From NCBI GenBank assembly GCA_010909165.1, contig MU008166.1:930001-994000 (forward strand): DNA of 64,000 nt. The letters are read 5' to 3'. The stretch's first letter is position 1. Each line of letters opens with the position of its first letter. Origin of the DNA: Anthoceros angustus (taxonomy: Eukaryota > Plantae > Anthocerotophyta). Below are positions 29,001-49,454 of this stretch, piece by piece. The position numbers were made by a program, and so were the translations under genes. Below the pieces are notes generated by a model. That model saw nothing but the letters and a program-made list of their open reading frames with translations. It did not search any database and had not been told where the DNA came from.

Positions 29001-30093
29001 TCAAAGAAAAATGAGAAGTCTGCAGGATTATCAGCTGGAAGATATGTTGGCTTGAAGCAGGCATAGTCCGCAAGGTAAACCCAGTTCCAGGACGTTACCA
29101 GAACATTCTCACATTTTATGTCACCTGCTCAGGACAACCATTCTCAACAACAATAAATAGATGGCAAAGGTAGCATTATCAGATCACAAGCCTAGCCACT
29201 TGTAAAGGACTCACCGTGACAGACTTTGTGCTCATGGCTCTGCTTCACTGCATGCAGTAGCTGCAAAACCATAGATTCAAATTGAGATCTGGCACAATCC
29301 TTATTTTGACACATCACCATGCTCTATCCTCAATCAAACTCCTGTATCATAATCTCAAGACTGAAACTGAGTGCAAATTCAGGACTTAATCCAAAAATCT
29401 CTCTTCCATGTTCCCAAGACTGAAGGTAGTTTCTCCAGCTGGAGAAACTCACTCAAGCCCACATCATTAGACTCCTGGCAACCTAAATCTCTGGTATATT
29501 TTAACCTGAAATGCCAGCCATTTCTTTTCTATGATGCTCAGGAAAGGGCGTGTGCTCATGCGATCATGGAGATTGCTGTAGAAGTACTGCCGTATGAGGT
29601 AGGCAGCCTTGTCTGTGTCCATCCAATGCTGCCACATAGGAAGCTCAAATTTCAGCAAAAGATGCAAGGAATGAGAAAGCTGATATTAGCTGATCAAGCT
29701 AAGTCACCTGAAAGGGCCAAACATGTGAATGCTTGATATCCTTTAGTTTCTCCTTGATTTCTTTCAGCTTCCGTTCATGAGCCTGAAGGAATGAAAGACG
29801 CAACTGGTTGATCAGCTAGAAAAAATTGCAATACCGTTGAGGTTAGACAGAAACAGGGCATTTCTTCACATGAACCACATATTGACGCAAATCACCTTCA
29901 CATCGGGAAATTCGCCACGCTTGAAGTAGACCTTGACAACAAGCCATCCCTCATCATGCGCACAAACTATGGATTTTAGAAAGCGGCCTCTGCCCAGCGA
30001 TTCCTTCAACACCAAATTTAAAGTGGTTGGCAGATCCTGCAGGTAGTACTCCGAAGCCGATGCCTGGGTTGTGCGGGCTAATTTGTTCCCCAT
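23016..30093 (-). CDS. VPS15: VPS15 / PI3K class III regulatory subunit: kinase - DysF-like insert - HEAT - WD40; multi-exon
   Basis: Starts [18 protein letters not shown] (myristoylation Gly). [41 protein letters not shown] region, [17 protein letters not shown]40, and C-terminus HRDCITSLA...[12 protein letters not shown] (TAG 23016-23018). Confidence 0.96.
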
Positions 30094-30241
30094 CTTTGAT
30101 CTCCAGTCATCTGCTCTGATGGTTAATATGCAAAGCCCTAGTGCAACTCATGCTCTGTGTCTGACACTACATATGGAATGTTACCGAATGAAGCAGCTCG
30201 GAGACTTGTCTTTGTAAGCTGTATTTGTAGTCTTCGAAGAG

Positions 30242-32350
30242 ATGGCTTCCCGGGTGCCCACCTTCCCTTCACGTGTTTCCTCTCGCGAATTGGGGTCTTC
30301 AAGCACCCTCTCACCTGGATCGATTTCTGTGCCTGTTTCTGGAGGAGATTTCGATTCCGACGACACCAAGAAAAAGAGGAGGAGGAAGAGGTTCGCACGG
30401 GTGCCGGGTGACTTATGTGAGGGCTTCTATCTGTGACCGCTCTGTTAACGACAGTTGAGATGCTAAAGTCTAGTCTCACCACGGCTTCCGGATCTGCGCA
30501 GGTTTAGAAAGGAGAAGTTGCGGGGCATGGGGATTGGGAGCTCTTATAATCCTCTTTTGCTTTTGGTTTGTTTCCGTTCAGGTTCCTCATGCCAGACCAG
30601 GTGATAAATCTCTTGGGCAATTGCCAGGGGCAGCTAGTAGCATCTGGTCAATCAGCTGAATTTGCGGATGGGCTCTTGCAGGTGGACGTGTAGACTCTCA
30701 GGACGCGAAGAAGCCTGGCAGTACAAAGTCTAAGCTGAATAATCTGGACATGCCAATGAGAAGGAGAAATGGGACTCTGGAACGTAGGTGTTGGGGGCCG
30801 CAGGGAAGGGGGCGGGGGTGGGGGAAAGGGAGGTGGGGAGCTGTCAGCTAGTTGGCCCTCTTTAGCTGTCTATGACCGTGGTCTCGTATTTGCAGCTTGC
30901 CTGAAGCTCCTTCCTGTTAAAGAACTTGAGAAGCTTTCGTTTCCTCCCCAGACTGGTGATGACACCATCAAACACCTACACTACATGAACTACTATGAGA
31001 ATGAACTATTACAGGTCGACGGGTCTGATGGTCAATCCCTGGTTTTCCACAAAAATAGAAGTACGAATCTCTTTACTGGGAACCTCACAGGTAGAACGAG
31101 AAGCGCGAGCTTCAAGGTCCGTTCGCTGTGCTTGCCCATATATGCGTGTTTGTGCTAGGAGCTTGGAAGGAACTCGAGCTGTCGTGAGGCGTAGCTGATG
31201 TTTGCCCTGTTGCTGTCAGATTGGTGAAACTGTGGCTGTTCATTGTGGGTTCTGCCATGAGCACGGTGGATTTGACATCTCTGCACCAGATAGACAGTTC
31301 CTGGCTAAGTGTGAAGCAGTCGTAATGACTTGCATATTTGGCGGAGGAGATGACCTGTACCAGCCTGTTGGGATGTCCAGTGCTTCTCTTGATAAGGTGT
31401 TGATCTCTAGGTTGCCGACCATTATGTCATCCAGCTCCTGGATCTCGAATTCTAACAGGACAAGTACCTATATGGCAGGTATGCTATGTAGCGTTCTGGG
31501 ATAACGTGACAGTACAAGCTATGCAGGAACGTGGAATATACCCTGACAAAGTGAGCAGGAAAATAGGGCATTGGAGAGCTGTCTTTGTTGACAATCTACC
31601 TTTCTCTGATCAGCGAAAAAATGGAAAGGTTCCAAAGGTTGGTCTTCCCTTCTATGGATGTTCAGTTTTTTGCGTTTAATTCCAGGATTGCAGTGTTTTT
31701 CGTGCCGGCAAATTGCAACAATTCGAATTTTTGTTTCATTCTTCTACAGATGTTGAGTCATCGACTGTTTCCAAACGCCAAGTATTCTGTTTGGGTAGAT
31801 TCAAAATCACAGTTTCGTCGAGATCCTCTGGGAGTGTTTGAAGCCCTTCTCTGGCGGCCACAAGCTACTTTTGCCATTTCTCAGCATGGGGCACGGGATT
31901 GTGTTTATGAAGAAGGAATTGCAATTGTGCAAAAACATAAAGCAACACCTGGGGAGGTTGCAGCTCAACTTGGCCAGTACGAGTCTGAAGGATTGCCAAG
32001 GAAAGCACAGATAGAAGGCCACAAAGGTGAGTCTGAAAGCCTGGCAGCATTTGCTTTGGACAAATCATTCTTGTCGTCTTGAAAATGTCTTCAGTACCTT
32101 CTAAGGACCTGGTTGTGTTGCAGCATTGGCTGAAGCCTCCGTTATCATTCGCCAGCACACACCAAGGACCAATTTGTTTATGTGCTTATGGTTCAACGAG
32201 GTTGCGTTGTTCACTGCCAGAGATCAGCTTAGCTTTGTTTACGTTTTGACCAAGCTACCCATCCCCAACATTAACATGTTTCCTGTGTGCACTCGGAGGG
32301 CTTTGGTGAACAGCCTTGGCCACAAAACCAAAGCAAAGCCCTCACTGTGA
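30242..32350 (+). CDS. DUF616 (TOD1/MUCI70-like glycosyltransferase/ceramidase-like family) protein; 5' exons uncertain
   Basis: VHCGFC, TCIFGGGDDLYQP, CYVAFWD, HRLFPNAKYSVWVDSK, FAISQHGAR, EASVIIRQH, CLWFNEV...RDQLSF. The ATG at 30242 is tentative. Confidence 0.85.
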
Positions 32351-32936: not shown

Positions 32937-33614
32937 CTACATCGGCGTAGCATCCTGCTTGCTAGCTACGACCGGGCCAGACGGACTTTGACCCTGTGAA
33001 CGGGAATAAACCGGATGCACAGGTGCGCCCCCTGCAGGCTCAACATGAACCCATTTGCGGCCAGTAAGCTTGTTCTTGGCGAAGCGAACTTGCCCTGCAG
33101 ACAACGCGTAGAGCGTATGATCCTTGCCCATGCCAACAAAATCTCCTGGATGAAACCTGGTGCCTCTTTGCCTCACAATGATGTTGCCGGGGATCACTCT
33201 CTGCATACCGGTCACAAAATCTCAAAACACTGTCCACCATCGACAGTGGCAGGCCAAAATACACCCTTGGGAGAAGGCGTACCTGGCCGCCGAATTTCTT
33301 CACTCCTAAATACTTCGGCAACGAATCACGCCCATTCTGCGTGGAGCCTCCAGCCTTCTTAGTGGCCCATCTCCTGAAGACGAGACTCAAACCTCCGACC
33401 TCTCCCCCTGGAACGTCTGCAACCGGCAAGGCCGCAAGCTGAGTAACTACGAGGAAGGAACACTCCACCAGTGCTGAAGCTGGATTGAAAAATCCAGCAC
33501 TTATGCAACGGCTGCATTACCTTGGCAAACGGCCTGTCGCAGAGGGGACGGAGACGAGGACAGAGTGACGCGTGACAGCAGGCTGCTCAGGCTGTGCGAC
33601 GCATGCCTTGCCAT
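32937..33614 (-). CDS. RPL27: Mitochondrial-type ribosomal protein bL27, 3 exons, with a Ser/Arg-rich presequence
   Basis: [18 protein letters not shown]...[27 protein letters not shown]...GKDHTLYAL. First exon [16 protein letters not shown] from ATG 33614. Confidence 0.93.
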
Positions 33615-33811
33615 GACCGGGTCCAAAGAGAAGAAGAAGAGAAGAAAAAAATCCAATTATGTAACTCCTTGTTAATCGCTTCTTAAACCCCTGGCAGGGG
33701 ACGCGGACTTTTAGGGCTGGAGAGCCTCGTAGATTTCATTTCTCCTGTACATTCTCCGCCGTCTGTCCCTCGAATCCCCGCCTGCTAGTTCCCGTACCCT
33801 CCCCGGTCGTG

Positions 33812-34526
33812 ATGAATTCGACAATGGCGTCTCCATCGGCAACCAAGGTGATCACTCGAGGAGCGATGGCAGGTGCGCGGGCCTGCTACGCGGCCAGCTT
33901 GAAGCCCCGCGGCGTTGTCATTCGCCGCCACTACATCCCGGCAGCTTTGTCTGTTGCTCCCTCTCGTAGCGGCAGTTACAGGGGTATTAGCCATTCCCTC
34001 CCCGCTTCTTCCTTCTTGTTTCTGGTTCTTGGAGCTTAACTTCCGATTTCCTTCACCGACTGGTTTTCCGTGTTAAGGTGTTGCGTACCAACCTATCCGG
34101 GCTCACATGCCAAAGCGGCCAAGACCGTAAGTGGATTTCGTTTGCATGTCTTTTGCAAATCCTCTGTCGGCTGGTTGAGTTGTGTGTGTGTCGAGGTTGA
34201 TGTTGTGCTGGTGACCGTGTAGGCCAGGGAGCCCTGAACTCATTCCTCTTCCGGAGGTTACTGACTTTTCGCCAGAAGCTGTGGAGGAAAGGAGGAAGGA
34301 GGCAATGGCAGATGAGGAAGAAGTATGTCCTAGGTTCAACGCGCCTGGGAAGACTGTGGACGAGTATTTGCAGATTATGCAGAAGCTCAAGGAAATGCAG
34401 TTTAAGATGCAGGAAGACATACGTAAGCGGAAGTATGAAGCAAAGATGCAGCGGCAGGCCGAGGCCCGGGGTCAGGGTCAGGGTCAGGGTCAGGACCAGG
34501 GCCAGCAGGCCCGTGGTGAACGTTGA
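33812..34526 (+). CDS. Hypothetical protein of about 135-140 aa, 2 exons: transit-peptide-like N-terminus, charged coiled coil, (GQ)n tail
   Basis: Splice AGG G|gtattag...ttcgccag|AA GCT joins ORFs 33809-34039 and 34281-34526 in frame. No family recognised. Confidence 0.5.
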
Positions 34527-36089
34527 CCACGGCTGCTTCTCCACTACCTTCGTCGACACTGCCGGCGGAAGGAAACATCTCTACCCACTGTCGTGCTTCG
34601 GGATCGTAACCCTTCGTAACTGTGAGAGTTGTTTGGTAGATTGCTCAGTATAATCGTGTTGTACAGCAAAACATCCAAGCTCCCTTTCTCGTGATTTGGG
34701 AGTTTCACGTAGTATTGAAAATGTCTGGTGGAGACTGGCGTGTCGTTAATGTCTGCAATGGTTTAATAGAGTGTTCAACATCTGCAGATGGATGTCGAAA
34801 ATGTAGCTACACAAACCTTAGTGCTTAAGGATAATGCTGCAAGCAAGGGATAGCCGTAGTGGCAATATAGAGCGTTTTGTATTATCTGCAATTCCAACTC
34901 AGACGTAATCACTGGAATGTGGAATTTGCCACATTGTTCAGCAGCCAAATAAGCTCCCTTGGGGAACTGCGTGACCTGTTTACATGGCAAGCCAATTTTG
35001 TTATCATTTTTTTCCTCGTAAAGCCTGCAGACCGGCTTGAGATCGCCCGCAACTGAAAACTAGGACAATCGTGCTACCTATGGGCAGACTTACTAATGTC
35101 TAGTGACTTCAAAACGAGCCACCCAAGTTCATGGCAAGTCTCTAGCTATATACTGCTAGGGGCAGTCCCTTCAGCCATCCCTTCATGTATATAAGCTACT
35201 AGGTGAGTGCTAGCTACAACAGTAAAGCTGGAAAATCCAGTTCTGACAAAACAGGGTGATAGAATCCAGCATGTTTACAGAAAGATCCCTAAGCAACCTC
35301 GTTGCCTGAGCTCCCTAACCAAAACACCATCTGACTTTCCTCCCACAGGTGATTTGCGATACAGCTCTGCACTTTGATATGACAGCTTAGTTTCAAACAA
35401 GAGTCGCCACCAACCACCATCATGGTATGCACAACAACGCACCTCATCTGTAGAGTGTTGCTCTGCAACATGTACAAAAACTGAGTTTGCAACGTCAACA
35501 TAGAATCTGTCAATTTTCAGGTCCAAGCACATCTTGAGCCTGCAACTGTAGCTTTCTCGGTAGAAACAAGAAGACTTTCTTCAGATATCCAAATTCATGA
35601 GTGCACTCTGTGGGTGTCACTGCCGTTGCTCAGGCTCACCCCATTATACTGAAGTCTTCCGAGAACTTTTATCTGAAACAGAAACAACCAGACAAAATTT
35701 TTTGAAGCTGAGGAGGTAACATTACAACCTCCAACCCCATTACCCTCGTAATAATCCTCTGCTGTACCAACATCATTGACCCTCAGGCCTTCCCATGTAG
35801 GGCATCCAATCAAACCAGGCCTTTCACTGTAAGGCATCCAGTCACACCATCCTGTGTCTCTGGAAGTGAATGGCAGTACTCATCTCTCCAAATTGGCCAG
35901 CATCAAATAATGAACAGCAGTGAGGAAGGAGGTAGCATGGGTTCTTAGACCGATTTCTTATCTTGAACCCAGGTAACAATGCAAGGTTATGTAGGGGAGC
36001 ATAACTTCCCCACCCGTCATAGTGTCACTTCAAAAAACCGTGACCCATGTCTACAAAAACCTAGGGCTCTCCCTTTGAGGCATTGTTAT

Positions 36090-39000
36090 TTACGATGAAA
36101 GAGCCCCACGACTAAACAATTGATCGAGAAAGTAAAGTGGTCGCCTCCGCCCAGGTCCCATACCAACCCTTTCACTTGGGGGAAATATAGGTACAAGAGG
36201 AATCTGGGACAAAATGCTGAGCATTTCCTTCAATGCTCTCTGCAACCACCACAAGCCAGGCAGTGAGTACATCAAAGAAAAAAGCCGTTCCCACATAAGA
36301 CCAACCGCCTGCTCGGAGAAATCTCACCTGTACTTCATACATTTGGAAGGAGCCTGCCCCAATATTGTTTCCTGGTCTCAGAGGATCATCAATCCACAAA
36401 AGGGTGCACCGGGCACGAGCCAAATCCTTCACAGGGATGTACCCACCTTGACCACTTTTTCCCTGTGATGTTGATTGAGATCAGGCCAGATTAACAAGAG
36501 CTGAAAATGAGCACACCACATGCCTTTCAGAGACAGAGACAAGAACATACAAGTTTGCAAGTGCTTACCTTCAGCATAAGTTGGACGCGAGAAAAATCCG
36601 TACTCTCAAACCACCGAAGAAACCCCAGCAGAAGCACACCAAGACCAGGTGCAGGCACAGCTTCCATTGCGTTCAGCAGTTCCTCCGCTATTGCTGCTGT
36701 TCGTGATGGTCTGCTTTCCCTGGAGACATGCGAACAGTTACCAACAGCCGCATCAGGGCGAGACCCATCAAGTGTTCGACTTGAGGTGGCGCTCGTTCCA
36801 CTCATCGTAGTGCTCTCATTAGATAAACTTGAAGCTGAAGTATTTGTCGAACAATACGAAGAAATCGAGGAATCGTCATCAACTTCATCAGCTTCATCAC
36901 GAGATGAAGCAGAATGGGTGGTATCCACAGAAGCATTTGTTGAGCATAAAGAGCGGGCTAAAGGTGTCTCCTGCGGCAGTCCCCAAATTGGTGCCCACTG
37001 CAGACAGAGAGCCAGACAAGATTGTAAGGTTCCACAAGGCCAAAAGCAACTGTAACAAATCTTCCAACACTGACCTAGCAGAAAGCATTCAGAACCTCAC
37101 AATTACCTCAAGATAGAAAACAAGCATGAGTGTCAGCGAAAATGACCCCAGGCCCCCAGAGTACACATCATTCAAGGAGCGCTGATGGAGGAAGCTTTTC
37201 AACAGAAGAACCTGGAAATCCACAGCACAAAATGCTCTAGTAGTTGACAATCATTGCAGAGCCACAAACAAGAAACGTGCAAAGACACCTACCAGAGGAG
37301 CCAAAGCAGGAAGCTGCCTGAGTCTTTCTATCACCCATTCTCTAGCTGCTTGACCGTTGTGATAATTGATGGTTGAATTCTCTGCAGGAGACAGGCCCCC
37401 AGAAGGATTTTGCTTCCTTCCAGTTCCAATAGTCACATCAATTGAAACAGGGGTGCCCTTATCCGTCGCGCCATCTGGTGTACAGCGCAGCTTCACAACT
37501 GGAATGGCTGCAGGAATCAGAGCTACGCTTGCAAAAACCTTTTCTTTGGTATTCTTCAGTGCCTTATAAAGCGAGTCTGTAAGAGCAGCTGCAGGCCCCA
37601 ACTGCTGACCTCCTTCCAAATTTTCAGTGCTGGGTGGTGGCGCATTCACCACTGCAACATCCACATCAGAGTGGGAAATGCAAAGGCCAGTCGCAAATGA
37701 GCCATACACCTATTAACAAAGTGGACAGGTGCACCCAAGATCAACACCAACAAAAAGCAATATTGCAGAAGAGGCAAAGCCAAAAACAGAAGCAGATGAA
37801 TGGAAAGTGGTGCAGACCTCAACATCTCCCCCTTCCCATAATTCCTTGACAGCCCGCCTCACACAATCAACTGCTGCCTCAGCCCGCCGACGGGCCTCAG
37901 GTGAGGGTCCAACCGACCGAGCGAACTCAAGAACCTCTGCATGAAGGGCGTCCACGTTTGGATGGGGAGGCGAGAAGACCAACTGTTGCTGATGCACATA
38001 AATTCCTGGAGGATATCCTGGTAGGGAAGTATAAGGTGGTGATGCCAGGACAACTGGCGATTGGTAAGCCCAGCCATTTGCTAAAGGGCTTTGCATTCCT
38101 AGTTCGCCCTCAATAGCATTCCTGTTTATTGGCCTGTAAGTCAGACCCTGCAAACCATCACCAGTACCATTACCTGCCCGAACACGGCGCTCCCTGTAGA
38201 GAGATGAGGAGGTAGGTGGAGGGAGTACATGATGCATATTGGGTGGTGGAGGTGACGTCGGTACACGCATGGTAACCAGGCTTTGGCGTGCATGAGCCAT
38301 TGGTACACTGTGCTGCTGAAGCTCAGCAGGTAGTGGCTGCTTCCTGTGATGGGGTTGGCGATCCTCCACATGCCTATCGTGCTTCGGATACTCAAACTGA
38401 GACCTGCGTGGCTCATGTACAGACCTGCTATGCTGAAACTGTGGATGAATCTTTGCATTGTGAGAAGAGGTGGGGGGCACCTGGTTCTGATCGTGCTGGA
38501 TCTGCTGGACCTTCGGCGTAGCCATCTCATGTCCACTCAGAGGCTCATCTGACTCTGCTGCTTGAACCGGGACATCCTTTGTAGCAGAGTCCGTCTTCTC
38601 TTTCAATACCTCGGCTGTTGATCTCAAGGAACCATTCAAAGACGTACTGGACACGGCAGGATCAGAATCATGTAACCTCCGAAGTACTGCTGCATCATTG
38701 CCTTGCCATGCACTCTTTTTATCTCCAGATTTGCTATGATGTAGTTCAACTTCTCCCTCCTCCAGGGGGCTACCCCTTTCTACCGAACCTCTTGCTTCAT
38801 CAACAATCACTTCACCCAGCCTTTGAGGCTCATTGGCTCCTCCAACAGGGCCATTTCCGGCAGAATCAGGAAACATGGACTTGGGCAAGGCCCCAGGCTT
38901 GCTCCAAGGCTGCGATCTGTCTCCTCTCTTGGCATCTCCCTCCGAGGCAGTTTGCTTGTCCTCAGCCAAAGGCAAAGCAGATGGCAGTCTGCTAGCATCC

Positions 39001-41220
39001 TCCACGCCTCCTCTTTTGCTAGGAGTCTGGAGGGCATCCACCTTCAGCTTTGGATGAGCCACCCACATGCTTTGTGGCTCGGCCTTGGGGCTGCGACTGG
39101 CAGCAGGAGACTTCAGCTTGCTCTTGTCAGTTATGCTGTCCACTAGGCTAAATTCTGTAGTCAGGTCAGGTATCGGTTTGAGGCTCTCTAACCTGCTGGC
39201 AGCAAGGCCAGTTCCACCATCTGCACCATACCCTGATTGGATCTCCCCACCAGAGGTCTCCAGCAAAGCTGGTGACATGCCAGCCTTTAAAGCTGCGCTG
39301 TAAGAAGCAAAGCCAGCTCTCCCATTGCCCCTGCTATGGCTCGACATAGAGTTGGCCTCGCTGCCAACCCCTGAGCCATTTGAATGTGACGTGTCTGTGC
39401 AACTCGACCCCACTTCACCACAATGGTTCACCTCAGAGTTCCCATTTGGATGCTCCATTTTCTTGAATTTCGCATCCTGAGGTTTGTCTTCTGTGCCTGA
39501 ACCATTGGCATCTACATGGATGCCATTCGCAACATAAACCTTCTTGGGTTTATCTTCCTCATGCCCCATCCAGCTTGACACAGTCCCTACACTGGAGGAG
39601 CCACTGCAAGAATCTGAGTCATCCCTGCGCATCCATTTAGCACAGCTGTCCACCCTGCCTTCCCTCTCCCTCCCACGAGCTGACGCCTCAGTTGCAAGCA
39701 TATTCAGAGTCATCAAGGCTGGAGAGCCGTTCGTAACGGTGCCATTGGCTAGAGGAGCTATCCTCCGCCTGATGCCAGCAGGAGAGTTAGGCACATGATG
39801 GCCACGGTTTACTTTATTACTCTTGGTAGGCACTGTTTGCCAGCCACCCTTGTCGTCCAATAAACCAAACAACCTGAGTAATGCCTCCGCCTGTCATTCC
39901 AGCTCTCACTCGGTAAGAATGCAAAGCCATCAAATACCTACCTTGATACTAGCCCACAACAGTGACAAACAGAACAGACCAAGACACAAGAGACAACCTT
40001 ACCTCGTCCCTGGAGAGGTCAAGCTTTACCTCCTCATTAGTGAGATCAAGCTTAAATTTCGAATATTCATAATGTCGCAAAACTGGACGGAAAGCCTCCT
40101 CGTCTAGAGGTGGCCGCTGCTCCCGGAGCCGCATTCTAACCTGAAGAGAGGCAACCCAAGAAACGTTACACAAAACAATCTCTCACATTACCCCCCACAG
40201 AGGAGACTGATGGTGATGAAACAGCTGGACCGTTACCTGTCCAAGAATAAACAAAACACTCTCTAACATTTCCTCCCAGACAGGAGATTGATGATGATGA
40301 AACAGCTGGGCCGTTACCTGTGCAGGATACTTCGACCCAGGCCTCCCATTCCTGGAAAGATCCTTGCTTTCTGCCGCCCATGCATCTGGTTCTATGTTCA
40401 AGGCCCCATTACTTGAAGCCTGTGCAGTCAGTCGTAAGCCCAGAACGGAAAGGACGAAAATCAGGGTAGCCGGAAGGTCAGGCACCGAGTCCATCAACGG
40501 GCTCAGGAAATGTAGAACAACACAGCCGTACGTACCCCCAAAAAGCCCATACATACATACGTACATACATACATACAAACATCCAGGATGCAACCACTAC
40601 AATACAACCAGTGCGTACAAAGACAGAAACCCTAGAAAGCGAGACAAAAGGGGAAAGGACAATGCTGCCACAAACCTCGTAAACACCATGAAGCTTCCTA
40701 GTCGAATAATTATAGAGGAAAAGCGGCAACCCTGGTTGTATGGCACGAACAACGTCCTGGTACCTCTGCGGCAGCCCTGTACCCACCAATTGCACGGACA
40801 GTGAGCGGAGGGCAGAGAACCCGCAGACTGAATATGACAGCAAAGACGACGGGCGAACGCTGTGGATCCGACCCAAGGACATGGGTTCATGTGACCTCAA
40901 ACAGCATTGCAGCAGCAGCATCCAATTGACGGCAGCAGATGCAAACGGCTTCGCGGTCAGCTCAGCGGGCAAAATGCAGAGGAAGCAGAGGGAGGGAGAG
41001 GGAGGGCACACATACCAGGGTCAGAGAAGTCAAACATACCAAACAGGTGCCGGTCCAAATCCATGGTTTCGTTGCTACACATGAAGATGAAACCTCCCAG
41101 TTCCTCCCTGGGATTGGCCGGGACCGTCCTGGAGTCGACGACGCCGCTGGTGCCGCCGCCTCTGCGGGCATCCCTCTCGAAATTGCCCTCCAGATGAGGG
41201 CTCTTTTTGGTGGCAACCAT
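36090..41220 (-). CDS. Predicted DCD-domain / Trf4(PAP2)-like terminal nucleotidyltransferase fusion, 10 exons, about 1267 aa
   Basis: Exons 41220-41040, 40776-40676, 40419-40318, 40140-40030, 39890-37818, 37709-37293, 37211-37107, 36997-36569, 36462-36328, 36239-36090 are all GT-AG and in frame (3804 nt). DCD motifs: GGFIFMC, GLPQRY, PLFLYNYSTRKLHGVYEA, KYPAQV, FRPVL..YEYSKFKLDL. NTase motifs: YGSFATGLCISHSDVDV, SIDVT, LKSFLHQRSLNDVYSGGLGSFSL, IDDPLRPGNNIG. Confidence 0.85.
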
Positions 41221-42639
41221 GGTTACACGAGCACAACTAATTCTGCCTCATGTACATGAAGCGAAGCAAAATCCGAGACCAAGGTGGACAGGCAGGCCCG
41301 GGGGCTCCAAGCCCAAGAGCAAGAGCAACCAGCGAGATGAAATGGCGAGCACGCACGCTAAAGGAACCTCCTGCACGGCAACATGCCACAATCAGACTTC
41401 AAAAGCTTGCACCTTGGTAAGCAGGGCGATGAGGCCCCAGAATTGCGCCAGCCCGACACAAAGCCCGGGCTGGCAAGCAAGCGCGGACCTGGCGCGCGAT
41501 CCTACCCGCCCCAACACCCAGCAACCCTAGAGGAGCCTCACCCACCGCAATTGGGCAGGCCCGAGGCAGCAGGCCCACCGCGACCAGCCAATGCAGACGC
41601 TAAGCCGGCAATTGGGTGCAACATTCAATCAGCAGCAGGCGGCATGGCAATTCAGAGGGCCAGGCAGCAGAAACAGGCGTCCGGGGAGGCGCCCAGAGCT
41701 CCCTCCTGGGAGAAGAAATCGCCCACCACGCTCCACGGTCCAGGCGCCCTCCCTCCTGGAATGGCAGCAATCAGGAGCCCCGCGAGGCGTCGATGCAGGC
41801 AAACCCACCGCAGCGGCCCTCCTGCCGACCATCACCGGGAGGCACCCACAAGCACGCCCGGGGACCCGGCGCCCGGGGGAGGGGCAGCAGAGGCCGCTGG
41901 GTTGCTGCGCGGAACAATCCTCTGCCGATCGCAGGCGGAAGCAGGGCGGAACACCCTGGGCAGGCAGGGTGCGGAGCAGTTGGGAGACTGGCTCGGGAAT
42001 GTGGCGATGGGGGGAGTGGCGAGTAAAGAGGGGGGGAGGCCGCACGAGCACAAACAAGCAGGGGGGCCCAGGCAGCAGGGAGCGGGGACGGAGCACGGGG
42101 CGGGGCAGGGCAGGGCAGGGCTCGGCTCTGAAGGGCGAGCAGGGGAGGGAAAGGGAAGGGAAGGGCAGCAGCGGGGGCCCGGAGCCGGAGCAGAGAGGCA
42201 GTGCACAGCCCACAGCCCAGCAGCACAGCGCGCATGAAAGAGGCAGCGAAGCAAGGAAGGCAAGTGAAGGAAGAGAGGATGAAGAGGGAGAGGCGGCAGG
42301 TAAGCGTCTCGACGGAGACAGACGAGTAGCAACACAGCCCTACCCTCCAACTATGCCTGTCCTCTTCTCCCACCTCGGCCTTGGCCTCGGGCTCGGGCCT
42401 GGCCGCCTTCCTCTGCCCGTGGTAACTTCACGCTCTGCCCACAGTAAAGCCGCTCCTGGGTCTCTCGCATGGGATGGATGCCTCGCCTTCGATGGATGCA
42501 TGCTTTCTCTACCTGCTGCAATGTTACATATGTAGCCTTCAATCATGCGGCACAATCTTTGACGATTAGCTTTTCCTCAAGGTTTTTTTATATCTATAAA
42601 GCTAGATATCTGTATCATATATTTTACGTCCTAAGCGAA

Positions 42640-42734
42640 CTAGGTTTGTCTTTGCGCCGGCATACCGGCGCATAAGCATCATTGATTGGAGAAATTCATA
42701 ACAATGATGAAACATGCGCCGGCATACCGGCGCA
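42640..42734 (-). mobile_element. Helitron-type 3' terminus (GC hairpin plus CTAG|T); hairpin duplicated; body and 5' end unresolved
   Basis: Palindrome TGCGCCGG-CATA-CCGGCGCA at 42653-42672 and 42715-42734. On the minus strand the first is followed by AAGACAAAC-CTAG then T. Confidence 0.6.
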
Positions 42735-43054
42735 CTAAACATTTTCTATTAGAAAAACTGGTAACAATGACAAGAAATTGACACAAGAGATATTCATAGT
42801 AGCTAATATCGCTCATTGATAGTCTCATGTTTCTAAGTCCTGTGACATGGTAGTACATATGGTGTTTCCTAGTTCCATGTCACGACATCCATCCATGGAG
42901 CAATTCTATAATACTACAATTTTCACTCAAGAGTTACATGTACGTCGATTTAAGATAAGGCAAAGCTGACAAAGCTCCCATCCACAAAAACTCTGGCACT
43001 CTGATTGTGTTTCCATCACAGTGCAAGGAATATGTTACTGTTGTCATGCGCGTT

Positions 43055-47184: not shown

Positions 47185-49454
47185 TCATTTCATGCCAATT
47201 TTCCAGGCAACAATTCCCAATAAACCCCCCACAATCACCACAAGAGGTTCGAACCAGTGCAGTTGGTCCACCGCGACGAAGGCAAGGATGCCCAGACACA
47301 GGCTTGTCACAGGGAAGCTGGTCTGCTCCAGAACTCCGAAGGTGAGGGTGAAGACACTGACTGTGATGAGACCCACTCCGGCTGCATTGAAGCCTGGCAG
47401 AGCTCTCCTGTACATGGGCCATCTCCGGAAGCGGCCCCAGAATGGCATGATTCCGAAGATGAGCATGATGCCAGGGAAGAAGAGGCCACACCAGGCCAGG
47501 GCGGCACCCACAATGAAAACGTACCCGGCGTTGAGAGCGATGATGGTGCCAAGGTAGGTGGAGAAGTTGAAGAGAGGGCCGGGCAGTGCCTGCAAGATTG
47601 AACAGGCGATAATTGGAAATGCTGTAAGGAAGACAGATGCTTGCTGCAGTCTTGGAAAAACAGCTGAGGGTGAGTGCTGCAACACACCTGTACGACTCCC
47701 AGGCCAGCGTAGAACTGCTTGCTGGTGACCCAAGTGTCGGGATTGTCTACACACAGCCCATCTTTATCACATGTCGTTTGCACCACACCGTTGTATAGCA
47801 TGGGCAAAACCACCTGCACGGATGCATAACACGACAGAGAAGGTTTAAGGCGACCACAGAACTAGCAGGGCGTGTGGAAGACGTGATCAAGCTCCAGGCA
47901 GCACGGCAGGTAAACGACAATCTGGCACGCCCAGTACATGACACGATACATGCTCCTGGACCAGCCTATCCACATACCTGACCGCCTCCAAAAATGACAG
48001 ACCCAATTCTGTAAAAAACCTCCCACCAGCGCAGTGGGGCAGGAGCATCATCCAGGAGTCTGACGAGGAGGATGGAAGTTATGAGCACTACCACCCAGAG
48101 GAGCAGAAGGCTCCCTCCAAAGAACATGTTGAAACCATGAGAACGCACAGACTCATCCCTTGCCTGTGGAGATCACCACGCCATGAACATTCCATTCATC
48201 ACTTATCGTTAATCCTCCATTCCACGCCACCACCGGGCTCACACAGACTACAGGGCCGAGAAAGCTGCAATCCACGTGCACAAATGGCGACACCGTGACA
48301 ACCTTCATGGCAGGAAGCGGCTCCTTCCTGTACGAGCTGGAAAGCAGGGTGATGAGGCCCCCGGCAACGATGAGGCACGGGAATGTGTAGGCCCTGGGCC
48401 AGTAGTAGGCGATCACCACGGCTGCCGCAGAGATGGACGCAAGCAGAGGCCCCGCGCAAAGCTTGTAGGACATGGACTTGGCTGCAGACGCCACCAGGGC
48501 CACGCCCACAGCCGACACTCCAGAAACCAGCCCGTTGAGCGCTCCTTTAGGATGCTCCAGCTGCTTGTACGCAAACACCCCGATACCAGTCATGATCAAA
48601 GCCCCGGGGTACTGGAACAGCACTCCAGACAGCAATCCAGCTGCGAGCATTCAGCAGGATCGATACCATCAGCCCAGAACGCAATCTTCGTCACAGAGAT
48701 CTGGCCCGGTGGTCAATCAGAGGTTACGCGACTCCATCTAGGTACATGGAGGTATGAACTATCTCACCAAGACCAGAAGCACAACGAAAACATTCCCAAT
48801 CCTAAAACATTCTGTGTTTCTCAGTCGACGGCGATGAACTGTAAGACCAACAGCACAACGAAAACATTCCCGACGCACAGCGCGGTGGAGGGAACCGCGT
48901 ACGCCTGGAACACTCCATATTTGCGACCTACAACGTTCCATATTGAATTCCAACCCGCAACAGGGATGATCACCCACCAGGCACTCCTTTCTTGATGGTC
49001 CCGATTGCAAACGACACCTGCGTAGACGTCGGCCCCGGCATGCACTGCCCCAAAGCAAAGAGCTCCGCGTAGATTTCCGTGCTCATCCATCTCAGCTTCT
49101 CCACCAGCCGCTACAGCAAGAAAACACCTCTCAGACACCGCTCCCACAAAAACCACACCAACCATTACGCAAACAGCTCCGCACAGATCTCCGTTCTCAT
49201 CCATCTCAGCTTCTCCACCAGCCGCTGTACCAGCCACCAACACCTCTGAAACACCACTCTCACAAAACAACCATCACGACGCGCACCTTCTCGAAGAGAG
49301 CGATGTGGGCGCTGGGGCCGCCGAACGCGGTCCATCCCAGCAGGGTGAACTGCTTGACGATGTCCAGGTACCCGACCTCCACAACAGCGAGCGGCTCACA
49401 ATCCGCCTCCGCCGTCTCCACGTCGTGCCCGCTCGCAGCCTCGCCTCCCGCCAT
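47185..49454 (-). CDS. chrA: Long-chain (two-domain) chromate ion transporter, CHR/ChrA family; multi-exon
   Basis: LGWTAFGGPSAHIALF, GQCMPGPTSTQVSFAIG, second repeat FYRIGSVIFGGGQV and QALPGPLFNFSTYLG, many TM segments. An alternative upstream ATG is at 49508. Confidence 0.9.

Follow-up and report, generated by a model that had tools for sequence, protein, structure and literature searches.

Plant homologues of the poly(A) polymerase Trf4 have been named TRL (At5g53770) and MEE44 (At4g00060). In the available part of the same source no clear homologue of Air/ZCCHC7 is recognised in Arabidopsis, and plants have no reported TRAMP-like complex (PMC8894942). The absence of such a homologue puts the mechanism of RNA choice by plant Trf4-like enzymes in question. 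A 2026 review of plant tailing (PMC13030794) mentions neither the DCD domain nor Marchantia or Physcomitrium. The DCD binding data in the accessible part of PMC13570309 concern protein-protein interactions, the DCD of NRP binding CRY2 with a KD of 4.34 µM and PevD1 with a KD of 0.19 µM. Nucleic-acid binding by the DCD is called unclear for plants in the accessible part of Bell et al. (PMC7641849), which lists DCD fusions to YTH, KH, CCCH fingers, Tudor and cap methyltransferase in other eukaryotes. No report of nucleic acid binding by any DCD was found in the literature searched, and the PDB search returned no DCD structure.

The locus described here lies in a window of 64,000 nucleotides of Anthoceros angustus DNA (contig MU008166.1) and joins a DCD to a nucleotidyltransferase. 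The ten-exon gene model on the minus strand runs from an ATG at 41220 to a stop at 36090, and all its introns are GT-AG:

41546..42088, minus strand, 5′UTR exon, GC-rich, possibly longer upstream (X1 contig piece)
41371..41545, minus strand, 5′UTR intron, 175 nt, GT-AG (joint in X1)
41040..41370, minus strand, coding exon 1, ATG 41220, DCD from about residue 42 (contigs; start agrees with liverwort orthologues)
40777..41039, minus strand, intron 1, splitting the LF|GLP motif of the DCD (spliced in X1, X4, X10, X16)
40676..40776, minus strand, coding exon 2, DCD (Pfam PF10539, E 9e-11; contig joints)
40318..40419, minus strand, coding exon 3, DCD (Pfam match; contig joints)
40003..40140, minus strand, coding exon 4, DCD, including a 27-nt duplicated end (joint in six of eight runs)
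37818..39890, minus strand, coding exon 5, 691 codons: last DCD helix, linker and first enzyme helices (contigs, alignment)
37293..37709, minus strand, coding exon 6: catalytic palm, GS motif, D880, D882, D956 (Pfam PF22600, E 2e-8)
37107..37211, minus strand, coding exon 7: central domain helices (contigs; aligns to Trf4)
36569..36997, minus strand, coding exon 8: low-complexity insert and start of PAP-associated domain (contigs, alignment)
36328..36462, minus strand, coding exon 9: nucleotide-recognition motif, Asn1214 (alignment)
36090..36239, minus strand, coding exon 10 up to the stop (gene model, X1 contig)
35300..36089, minus strand, 3′UTR, running on past the stretch compared (same contigs in X1, X2, X3)

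Contigs from eight runs were compared with this model. The run records carry no RNA label and the cDNA nature of the runs was read from spliced GT-AG joints, whose presence indicates that they contain cDNA. Of the six spliced runs, X1 possibly derives from the source of the window itself and the remaining five come from relatives that are ~90–99% alike. The X1 contig (6,813 nt) spans all nine coding introns and the 5′UTR intron, with no mismatching letter over the six coding pieces listed. The joint into coding exon 5 (40003/39890, intron of 112 nt) is crossed by spliced contigs in six of the eight runs, which represent six studies (X1, X2, X3, X4, X10 and X16; the short side in X4 measures only 27 nt), and X21 and X23 are unspliced between these positions. 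The preliminary description had the DCD exons spliced in frame into the long exon: the frame and the single transcript stand, but the donor is 40003 and not the 40030 proposed there, which is used in none of the eight runs. Whichever of the two is chosen, the reading frame has no internal stop. A tandem repeat at 39999–40053 corresponds to a 27-nt duplication of the exon-4 end and thereby gives the protein nine extra residues (VKLDLSRDE). Transcripts ending or restarting between the exons, as expected of two separate genes, were not seen; that reading is rejected because contigs bridge the DCD and enzyme exons. DCD and nucleotidyltransferase belong to one gene, one spliced message and one protein. 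In X2 and X3 the main contigs still contain intron 1, as does one minor contig in X4; retained in the window sequence, it leads to a stop after 87 amino acids. A 15-residue insert shared by two mosses may likewise reflect regulated splicing of this intron.

In the encoded protein of 1,276 amino acids, a linker of ~630 residues separates the DCD from a nucleotidyltransferase that has its three catalytic aspartates intact. Exon 5 measures 2,073 nt, in agreement with the 691 codons first counted, and the last DCD helix is indeed encoded at its start. The linker is rich in S, G and P with few short conserved blocks in the alignment, and that of an orthologue is modelled at pLDDT <50; it is likely to be disordered, long and flexible. 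EEGEV-type motifs have an ARS2/SERRATE-binding role. The EEGEV found in the linker was rejected as such a motif, being present in only one of 49 aligned rows. Upstream, the in-frame ATG at 42235 was considered as the start of an N-terminal extension and dismissed, since its frame closes after 154 codons. An Rfam search of 33500–43000 gave no match at E 0.1. In X4 the DCD exons and the 3′ part are about tenfold apart in contig depth, a measure unfit for ranking parts of the gene.

Exons 2–4 match Pfam Dev_Cell_Death (PF10539) with E-values of 9e-11, 0.03 and 0.003, and the orthologue DCDs match the profile over its full length (1–126 of 126) at E ~1e-40. The FGLP, LFL, PAQV and PLxE motifs that characterise the domain are all found in the alignment. 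Identity to a liverwort orthologue is 72% for the DCD versus 52–88% for the enzyme; on this measure conservation of the DCD equals or exceeds that of the enzyme. The fused DCD shares 64% identity with unfused ones from angiosperms. The grouping of the DCD with EVE and YTH domains, noted in the preliminary description, is borne out by the model of the liverwort DCD (pLDDT 85, pTM 0.80), which matches EVE and YTH structures with Z-scores of 11–14: 14.0 for the EVE protein PH1033 (rmsd 2.9, 124 aligned residues), 11.6 for the EVE domain of VcaM4I, 11.2 for the Mmi1 YTH domain and 11.0 for YTHDC2. Foldseek also pairs the model with EVE/YTH structures (E 2.5e-7). The domain is thus predicted to adopt an EVE/YTH-like (PUA-like) barrel. 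Conserved residues that might line its pocket are F60 (39 of 46 rows), P63 (36/46), W108 (40/46), F/Y125 (46/46) and F157 (44/46). F60 aligns with a Trp of PH1033; the putative equivalence to the EVE/YTH pocket was derived from this weak sequence alignment (E 0.17) and from residue spacing, not from superposition.

The poly(A) polymerase core first seen in the sequence is complete: D880, D882 and D956 are present (Asp in 49, 49 and 48 of 49 aligned rows), as is the PAP-associated DDP..P.NN motif. The GS motif, the DxD and the third catalytic Asp identify a Pol-beta-fold nucleotidyltransferase; MTPAP-like_central (PF22600, E 2e-8) and NTP_transf_2 match exon 6, and the central/PAP-associated domain with its nucleotide-recognition motif aligns to Trf4. 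Pfam PAP_assoc scores in orthologues are slightly below the cut-off, and exon 9 by itself has no match in the PDB. By sequence, Trf4 (3NYB) is the best solved structure (E 3e-37 versus 3e-11 for Cid1 and 5e-7 for GLD-2). Structurally, the Selaginella orthologue model matches 3NYB with Z 26.4 (rmsd 3.1, 296 aligned), tied with GLD-2 (26.0) and TUT7 (25.6). The selectivity position, located by alignment with URT1 and TENT4A, is Asn1214 in this gene only; its counterpart in relatives is Ala (22), Val (17) or another residue. No His occurs there in any of the 45 rows with a residue, so the pattern is not that of the uridylyltransferases Cid1, URT1 and TUT4/7; in Cid1, H336 has a uridine-selecting role (PMC13702519, available part). 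The enzyme is probably active with a preference for ATP, which we infer rather than assert since the selectivity residue varies among relatives. The full-length model (pTM 0.55) is uninformative on docking of the DCD to the enzyme.

A search in other plants and algae found the DCD plus nucleotidyltransferase architecture in 45 of 48 close relatives, distributed over the Zygnematophyceae (Closterium, Spirogloea), liverworts, mosses, lycophytes, ferns and conifers; none of the 34 named relatives is an angiosperm. The DCD is carried by 48 of 54 clade-like rows versus none of 129 other nucleotidyltransferases, and is degraded or missing in some members (P0027, P0040, P0058). The preliminary description knew of no earlier account of this architecture. 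None was found in the literature searched, of which one key figure was not covered, yet sequence databases contain it from a wide range of non-flowering plants, with entries labelled just 'DCD domain-containing'; this bears on the condition, a wide listing in plants, under which the preliminary description would give up uniqueness. The ESM Atlas search returned clusters of DCDs and of generic nucleotidyltransferases and nothing else. Assignment of the enzyme to the Trf4/PAP2 type holds for the closest solved structure but not for descent: it forms its own streptophyte clade (support 100/99), left out of the core Trf4/TENT4 clade (100/100) of fungal Trf4-type and animal TENT4 proteins. A position as sister to that core is not rejected (p-AU 0.375). 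The DCD proteins are also separate from the clade of Amborella P0151 and Riccia P0148, which from their architecture we take to be MEE44-like; a constrained union of the two gives a borderline p-AU of 0.041, the groups having been designated in the light of a first tree. Both types occur in Riccia fluitans. The branch of the window enzyme is long (0.53 versus 0.10–0.36 for other DCD-bearing rows).

We propose, with somewhat better than even confidence, that the protein is an enzyme likely adding A residues whose DCD picks the RNA substrates. The DCD, with its predicted reader fold, would be tethered by the disordered linker to a Trf4/TENT4-related enzyme, and would use its conserved hydrophobic pocket to bind RNA. 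RNAs picked by the DCD should then gain tails, in the form of short A-rich additions to 3′ ends. The domain might fill in cis the role that Air1/2 and ZCCHC7 have in trans. The tails would not stabilise the RNAs but target them for trimming by the exosome or for decay. The pocket may not need a methylated base, since some domains of the YTH fold, such as that of Mmi1, read unmodified RNA. A more specific version, in which the DCD reads m5C or m6A in RNA, the fused polymerase tails that RNA for turnover, flowering plants lost the system and regulated intron-1 splicing, by breaking the pocket, would inactivate the reader, is doubtful as a whole.

The same enzyme might instead have its RNA chosen by other proteins, the DCD being a protein-binding adaptor that recruits it to a complex or to stress signalling. 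We regard this as unlikely but worth serious thought: it has as precedent the interactions with CRY2 and PevD1 of NRP, the closest DCD type studied so far, the identity between fused and unfused angiosperm DCDs means that a binding surface may be shared, and a long flexible linker suits tethering to a complex. It fits less well with the predicted nucleic-acid reader fold and with the RNA-related fusion partners of DCDs elsewhere, among which an RNA 3′-end enzyme is at home (PMC7641849, accessible part). A different objection accepts selection by the DCD and changes the outcome, mixed or long A tails stabilising or re-activating the selected mRNAs. Animal TENT4 and GLD-2 can act in this way. 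The tie between Trf4, GLD-2 and TUT7 in structural matching agrees with such an outcome, as does the position outside the core Trf4/TENT4 clade, from which it follows that a TRAMP-like decay role is not transferable by orthology; protection nevertheless seems improbable, the sequence being far nearer Trf4 than GLD-2 and the studied plant relative TRL adenylating rRNA intermediates for degradation (PMC8894942, available part).

That the DCD recognises methylated DNA and anchors the enzyme to chromatin, to act on nascent or silencing-related transcripts, is suggested by the EVE domains being its top structural matches, that of VcaM4I flipping 5mC/5hmC out of DNA (PMC7897488, available part). We hold it very improbable: nothing in the present data ties the family to chromatin and the eukaryotic DCD fusions in the accessible part of PMC7641849 point to mRNA. 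Hardly credible, finally, is a fusion that is a historical accident or gene-model artefact, with two genes or a DCD without role for the enzyme. Members with a lost or degraded DCD are few, and they and the failure to find the family in angiosperms are what speaks for it. Against it stand the spliced contigs over the joint, which refute the two-gene form, the last DCD helix in the long exon, and retention of the architecture from algae to conifers with high DCD conservation; so wide a distribution makes an artefact very unlikely.

A DCD and an RNA 3′-end enzyme in one chain would provide a built-in read-out for DCD targets and, if the methylated-base version is true, a one-protein link from RNA modification to 3′ tailing in non-flowering streptophytes. 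Plant tailing studies based on Arabidopsis and crops would miss the family. Physcomitrium and the genus Marchantia, both of which are routinely used for knockouts, have orthologues.

Among described proteins, the NRP/B2, DCD-Kelch and ParB-DCD proteins share the FGLP, LFL, PAQV and PLxE motifs, but none of the four DCD subgroups in the available part of Tenhaken 2005 (PMC1182354) has an enzyme domain, whereas here a nucleotidyltransferase follows the DCD in the chain. In the MEE44-like proteins compared, too, the enzyme is the C-terminal part of a long chain, but they have no DCD and form their separate clade; TRL itself was not identified among the rows compared. EVE/YTH proteins (PH1033, VcaM4I, Mmi1, YTHDC/DF, AtCPSF30) resemble the DCD in predicted fold (Z 9–14, TM 0.6–0.7) and differ in sequence (10–18% identity). 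In TUT4/7 and TUT1, with their built-in RNA-binding modules, and in Mmi1-MTREC-Pla1, where the reader recruits tailing by separate proteins, a reader likewise brings a tailing enzyme to chosen RNAs, but by zinc fingers, RRMs or separate proteins; we know of none among them with a PUA-like domain in the same chain. Yeast Trf4/PAP2 (3NYB) and animal TENT4A/B of TRAMP are the best solved matches by sequence and Foldseek, with the same catalytic triad and a similar nucleotide-recognition loop without His. The DCD protein differs from them in lying outside their core clade and in its long N-terminal linker, and it has its own reader-fold domain where Trf4/TENT4 use separate zinc-knuckle proteins (PMC8894942, available part).

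The region holds one minus-strand gene, whose 10 coding exons run from an ATG at 41220 to a stop codon at 36090. All of its coding introns are GT-AG and the joined frame, free of internal stops, encodes a protein of 1,276 amino acids in which Pfam places Dev_Cell_Death (DCD) in exons 2–4 and a nucleotidyltransferase palm in exon 6. A single 6,813-nt contig from the public run X1, without differences from the window in the coding pieces listed, spans all nine coding introns and a 5′UTR intron, and so establishes on one transcript the fusion of the two domains proposed in the preliminary description. Transcripts were compared in the eight of 23 listed public runs that were placed on the region. 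The joint 40003/39890 into the 691-codon exon 5 is spliced in six of them (six studies, four coded organisms) and unspliced in the other two; independent support comes from five runs of relatives, because X1 may be the source of the window itself. A spliced joint had been correctly anticipated here, but with its donor at 40030. Of the two donors weighed for exon 4, 40030 is ruled out as unused in all eight runs. The donor is 40003 because a 27-nt tandem duplication copied the splice donor; use of the downstream copy adds nine residues that are absent from all 48 relatives.

Tandem duplications that copy the splice donor in frame are found at the start of three introns:

40993–41041, 24-nt duplication, intron 1
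40170–40321, 81-nt duplication, intron 3
39999–40053, 27-nt duplication, intron 4

They lie within about 1 kb and form a cluster, since we counted only about 14 tandem repeats of this kind across the 64-kb window. Intron 2 has a near-copy of its donor stretch at +95, and no donor-copying duplication was found at introns 5–9. Among the copied donors only that of intron 4 is in use in the contigs.

Several features of the DCD exons may point to regulation; all were noted post hoc and are leads only. Intron 1 (40777–41039) splits the motif LF-GLP. In its 3′ part (40777–41020, minus strand) the frame of exon 2 stays open over about 80 codons, perhaps by chance, and offers an ATG near 40921. The intron is retained in relatives (main contigs of two runs, minor contig of one), and its retention in the window sequence leads to a stop after 87 residues. 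Isoforms of Physcomitrium and Ceratodon (protein rows P0010, P0013, P0015 and P0016; 4/49 rows) have at the same place, precisely between LF and GLP, inserts of 15 residues that resemble each other, and three fern-like models begin at the next Met. The intron 1 site is possibly a conserved off-switch for the DCD; to judge from the reading frames, transcripts that keep intron 1 could yield a protein without the DCD start. Exons 2–4 (40003–40776) are almost invariant, 1 of about 341 nt differing from relatives in each of three runs, where the rate seen in the introns predicts about 5.9 synonymous changes (P about 0.02). Introns diverge by about 6%, and exons 6 and 9 (36328–37709) exceed them with 9–10% (exon 6: 36–39 of 417 nt, in other runs than those used for exons 2–4). 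The 5′UTR (41221–42300, minus strand) is long, GC-rich and interrupted by an intron, and its six upstream ATGs, opening ORFs of 4–154 codons, suggest translational control.

The flanking ORFs, whose identities we presume from their translations, are:

29866–30147, minus strand, VPS15-type kinase
31567–32082, plus strand, glycosyltransferase-like protein
32937–33516, minus strand, organellar ribosomal protein L27
44520–45848, minus strand, VAMP7-type SNARE
47185–48172, minus strand, chromate transporter

These presumed labels give no sign of a functional cluster. A 72-residue ORF without Pfam match (34306–34526, plus strand) faces the gene; their 3′ ends may overlap, because the X1 contig extends 1,268 nt past 35300, enough to meet it.

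The DCD–nucleotidyltransferase architecture is shared by a whole family. A search with exon 6 retrieved three liverwort proteins (831 candidates), all with both domains, and the Calypogeia enzyme region gave 52 matches (7,350 candidates). The first 48 of these (E 1.5e-46 or better), defined as the family, include 45 with a precomputed DCD match. None of the 34 members with a species name is an angiosperm; they comprise algae (Closterium and Mesotaenium, the name read off the model id), bryophytes and lycophytes (Marchantia, Riccia, Calypogeia, Sphagnum, Physcomitrium, Ceratodon, Selaginella, Diphasiastrum), ferns and conifers (Adiantum, Ceratopteris, Taxus, Cryptomeria). Searching 1.84 billion representatives exhaustively brought in a Spirogloea protein with DCD and enzyme, and a partial Psilotum protein. 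With local profiles derived from the family's own sequences, DCD was detected in 48/54 clade-like rows versus 0/129 other nucleotidyltransferases; of the six exceptions, three are fragments or partial sequences and a fourth starts at the last DCD helix. The DCD query returned 25 matches (132 candidates), 23 of them family members and two angiosperm proteins whose DCD is 64% identical and stands without the enzyme. No angiosperm fusion is among the matches listed (a length-limited search; the best 150 rows, with 30 representatives named), and from its absence in these two limited searches we infer loss in flowering plants.

From the 152 rows that a first FastTree run contained, 56 were taken into a maximum-likelihood tree (271 columns); seven further rows, too short or odd, were left out. 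Three groups are well supported: the DCD clade (support 100/99), a core group to which animal TENT4A and a fungal Trf4-type protein belong (100/100), and a group of plant proteins that we take to be MEE44-like (100/99). Riccia fluitans has a protein in the DCD clade and another in the MEE44-like group. Forcing these two groups together is weakly rejected (p-AU 0.041), while the DCD clade as sister to the core group is not (p-AU 0.375). TRL was not identified among the tree rows. The window protein sits on a long end branch without resolved sister. The nearest relatives outside the DCD clade (rows P0106, P0123, P0061, P0094 and P0168) are long DCD-less protist nucleotidyltransferases (a cryptophyte cluster, Pigoraptor) and a DCD-less row at the clade base. 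The sequences hint at an enzyme lineage older than the fusion.

The catalytic core is complete, as had been claimed: among 49 rows, the three aspartates are kept in 49, 49 and 48. Of the solved structures, yeast Trf4 comes closest in sequence (E 9e-25 with a single sequence, 3e-37 with a profile; Cid1 3e-7 and 3e-11) and also with Foldseek; structural Z-scores are tied (Trf4 26.4, GLD-2 26.0, TUT7 25.6). The earlier Trf4-like label holds for the nearest solved sequence; in the tree the clade lies outside the core Trf4/TENT4 group. The uridine-selecting His, whose role is described for Cid1 H336 (PMC13702519), is replaced at the URT1 position by Asn in the window protein and by Ala or Val in most relatives; a uridylyltransferase is unlikely because His never occurs there in the family. 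A preference for ATP is predicted.

Structure was modelled from orthologues. In the Selaginella protein two domains are predicted with confidence, and the linker between them with low confidence. A model of the isolated Calypogeia DCD (pLDDT 85, pTM 0.80, four-row alignment) matches EVE structures (PH1033, Z 14.0; VcaM4I, 11.6) and YTH structures (Mmi1, 11.2; YTHDC2, 11.0; AtCPSF30, 9.6), as it also does with Foldseek, in line with the grouping given in the preliminary description and with the profile-based assignment in PMC7641849. Five hydrophobic DCD positions are conserved, and F60 lies opposite a PH1033 Trp in a weak sequence alignment (E 0.17); any equivalence with the VcaM4I pocket, formed by P24, W82 and Y130 (PMC7897488), is tentative. 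The linker (exon 5, residues 184–815) contains short conserved blocks, SDSxSGSSS, SYxAALK and, just after the DCD, W-x-x-V-K, kept across bryophytes and lycophytes, which may be partner-binding motifs.

No description of the architecture was found in the literature searched, where subscription journals are mostly missing. Co-mention of "DCD domain" and "nucleotidyltransferase" concerned BREX only, and "nucleotidyl" does not occur in the main text of PMC7641849, whose Fig. 13 covers plant DCD architectures and could show the fusion. The architecture was not found in the available parts of PMC1182354, PMC13030794, PMC8894942, PMC13570309, PMC7897488, PMC13702519 and PMC4943007. In databases the proteins bear automatically assigned labels, for example "DCD domain-containing protein". 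They apparently form a subfamily of Trf4-related enzymes, fused to a PUA-like domain, that has not been described before; the earlier observation stands after one splice correction, and its interpretation in part.

The data establish the gene, its transcript, its motifs and its distribution, and both folds are predicted; enzymatic activity, RNA binding and the fate of the RNA are inferred. We lean somewhat towards a reader-guided tailing enzyme. Its DCD would bind target transcripts, its linker would be flexible enough for the catalytic part to get to their 3′ ends, and the short A-rich tails added there would pass them on to the exosome. Its main rival, a DCD serving as protein adaptor, appears distinctly less probable; it draws on the plant DCD binding data found, which are protein–protein (PMC13570309) and count against a reader role. 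Tailing guided by the DCD would resemble the action of TRL, whose tails pass rRNA intermediates to the exosome (PMC8894942), the same outcome as proposed for the DCD enzyme.
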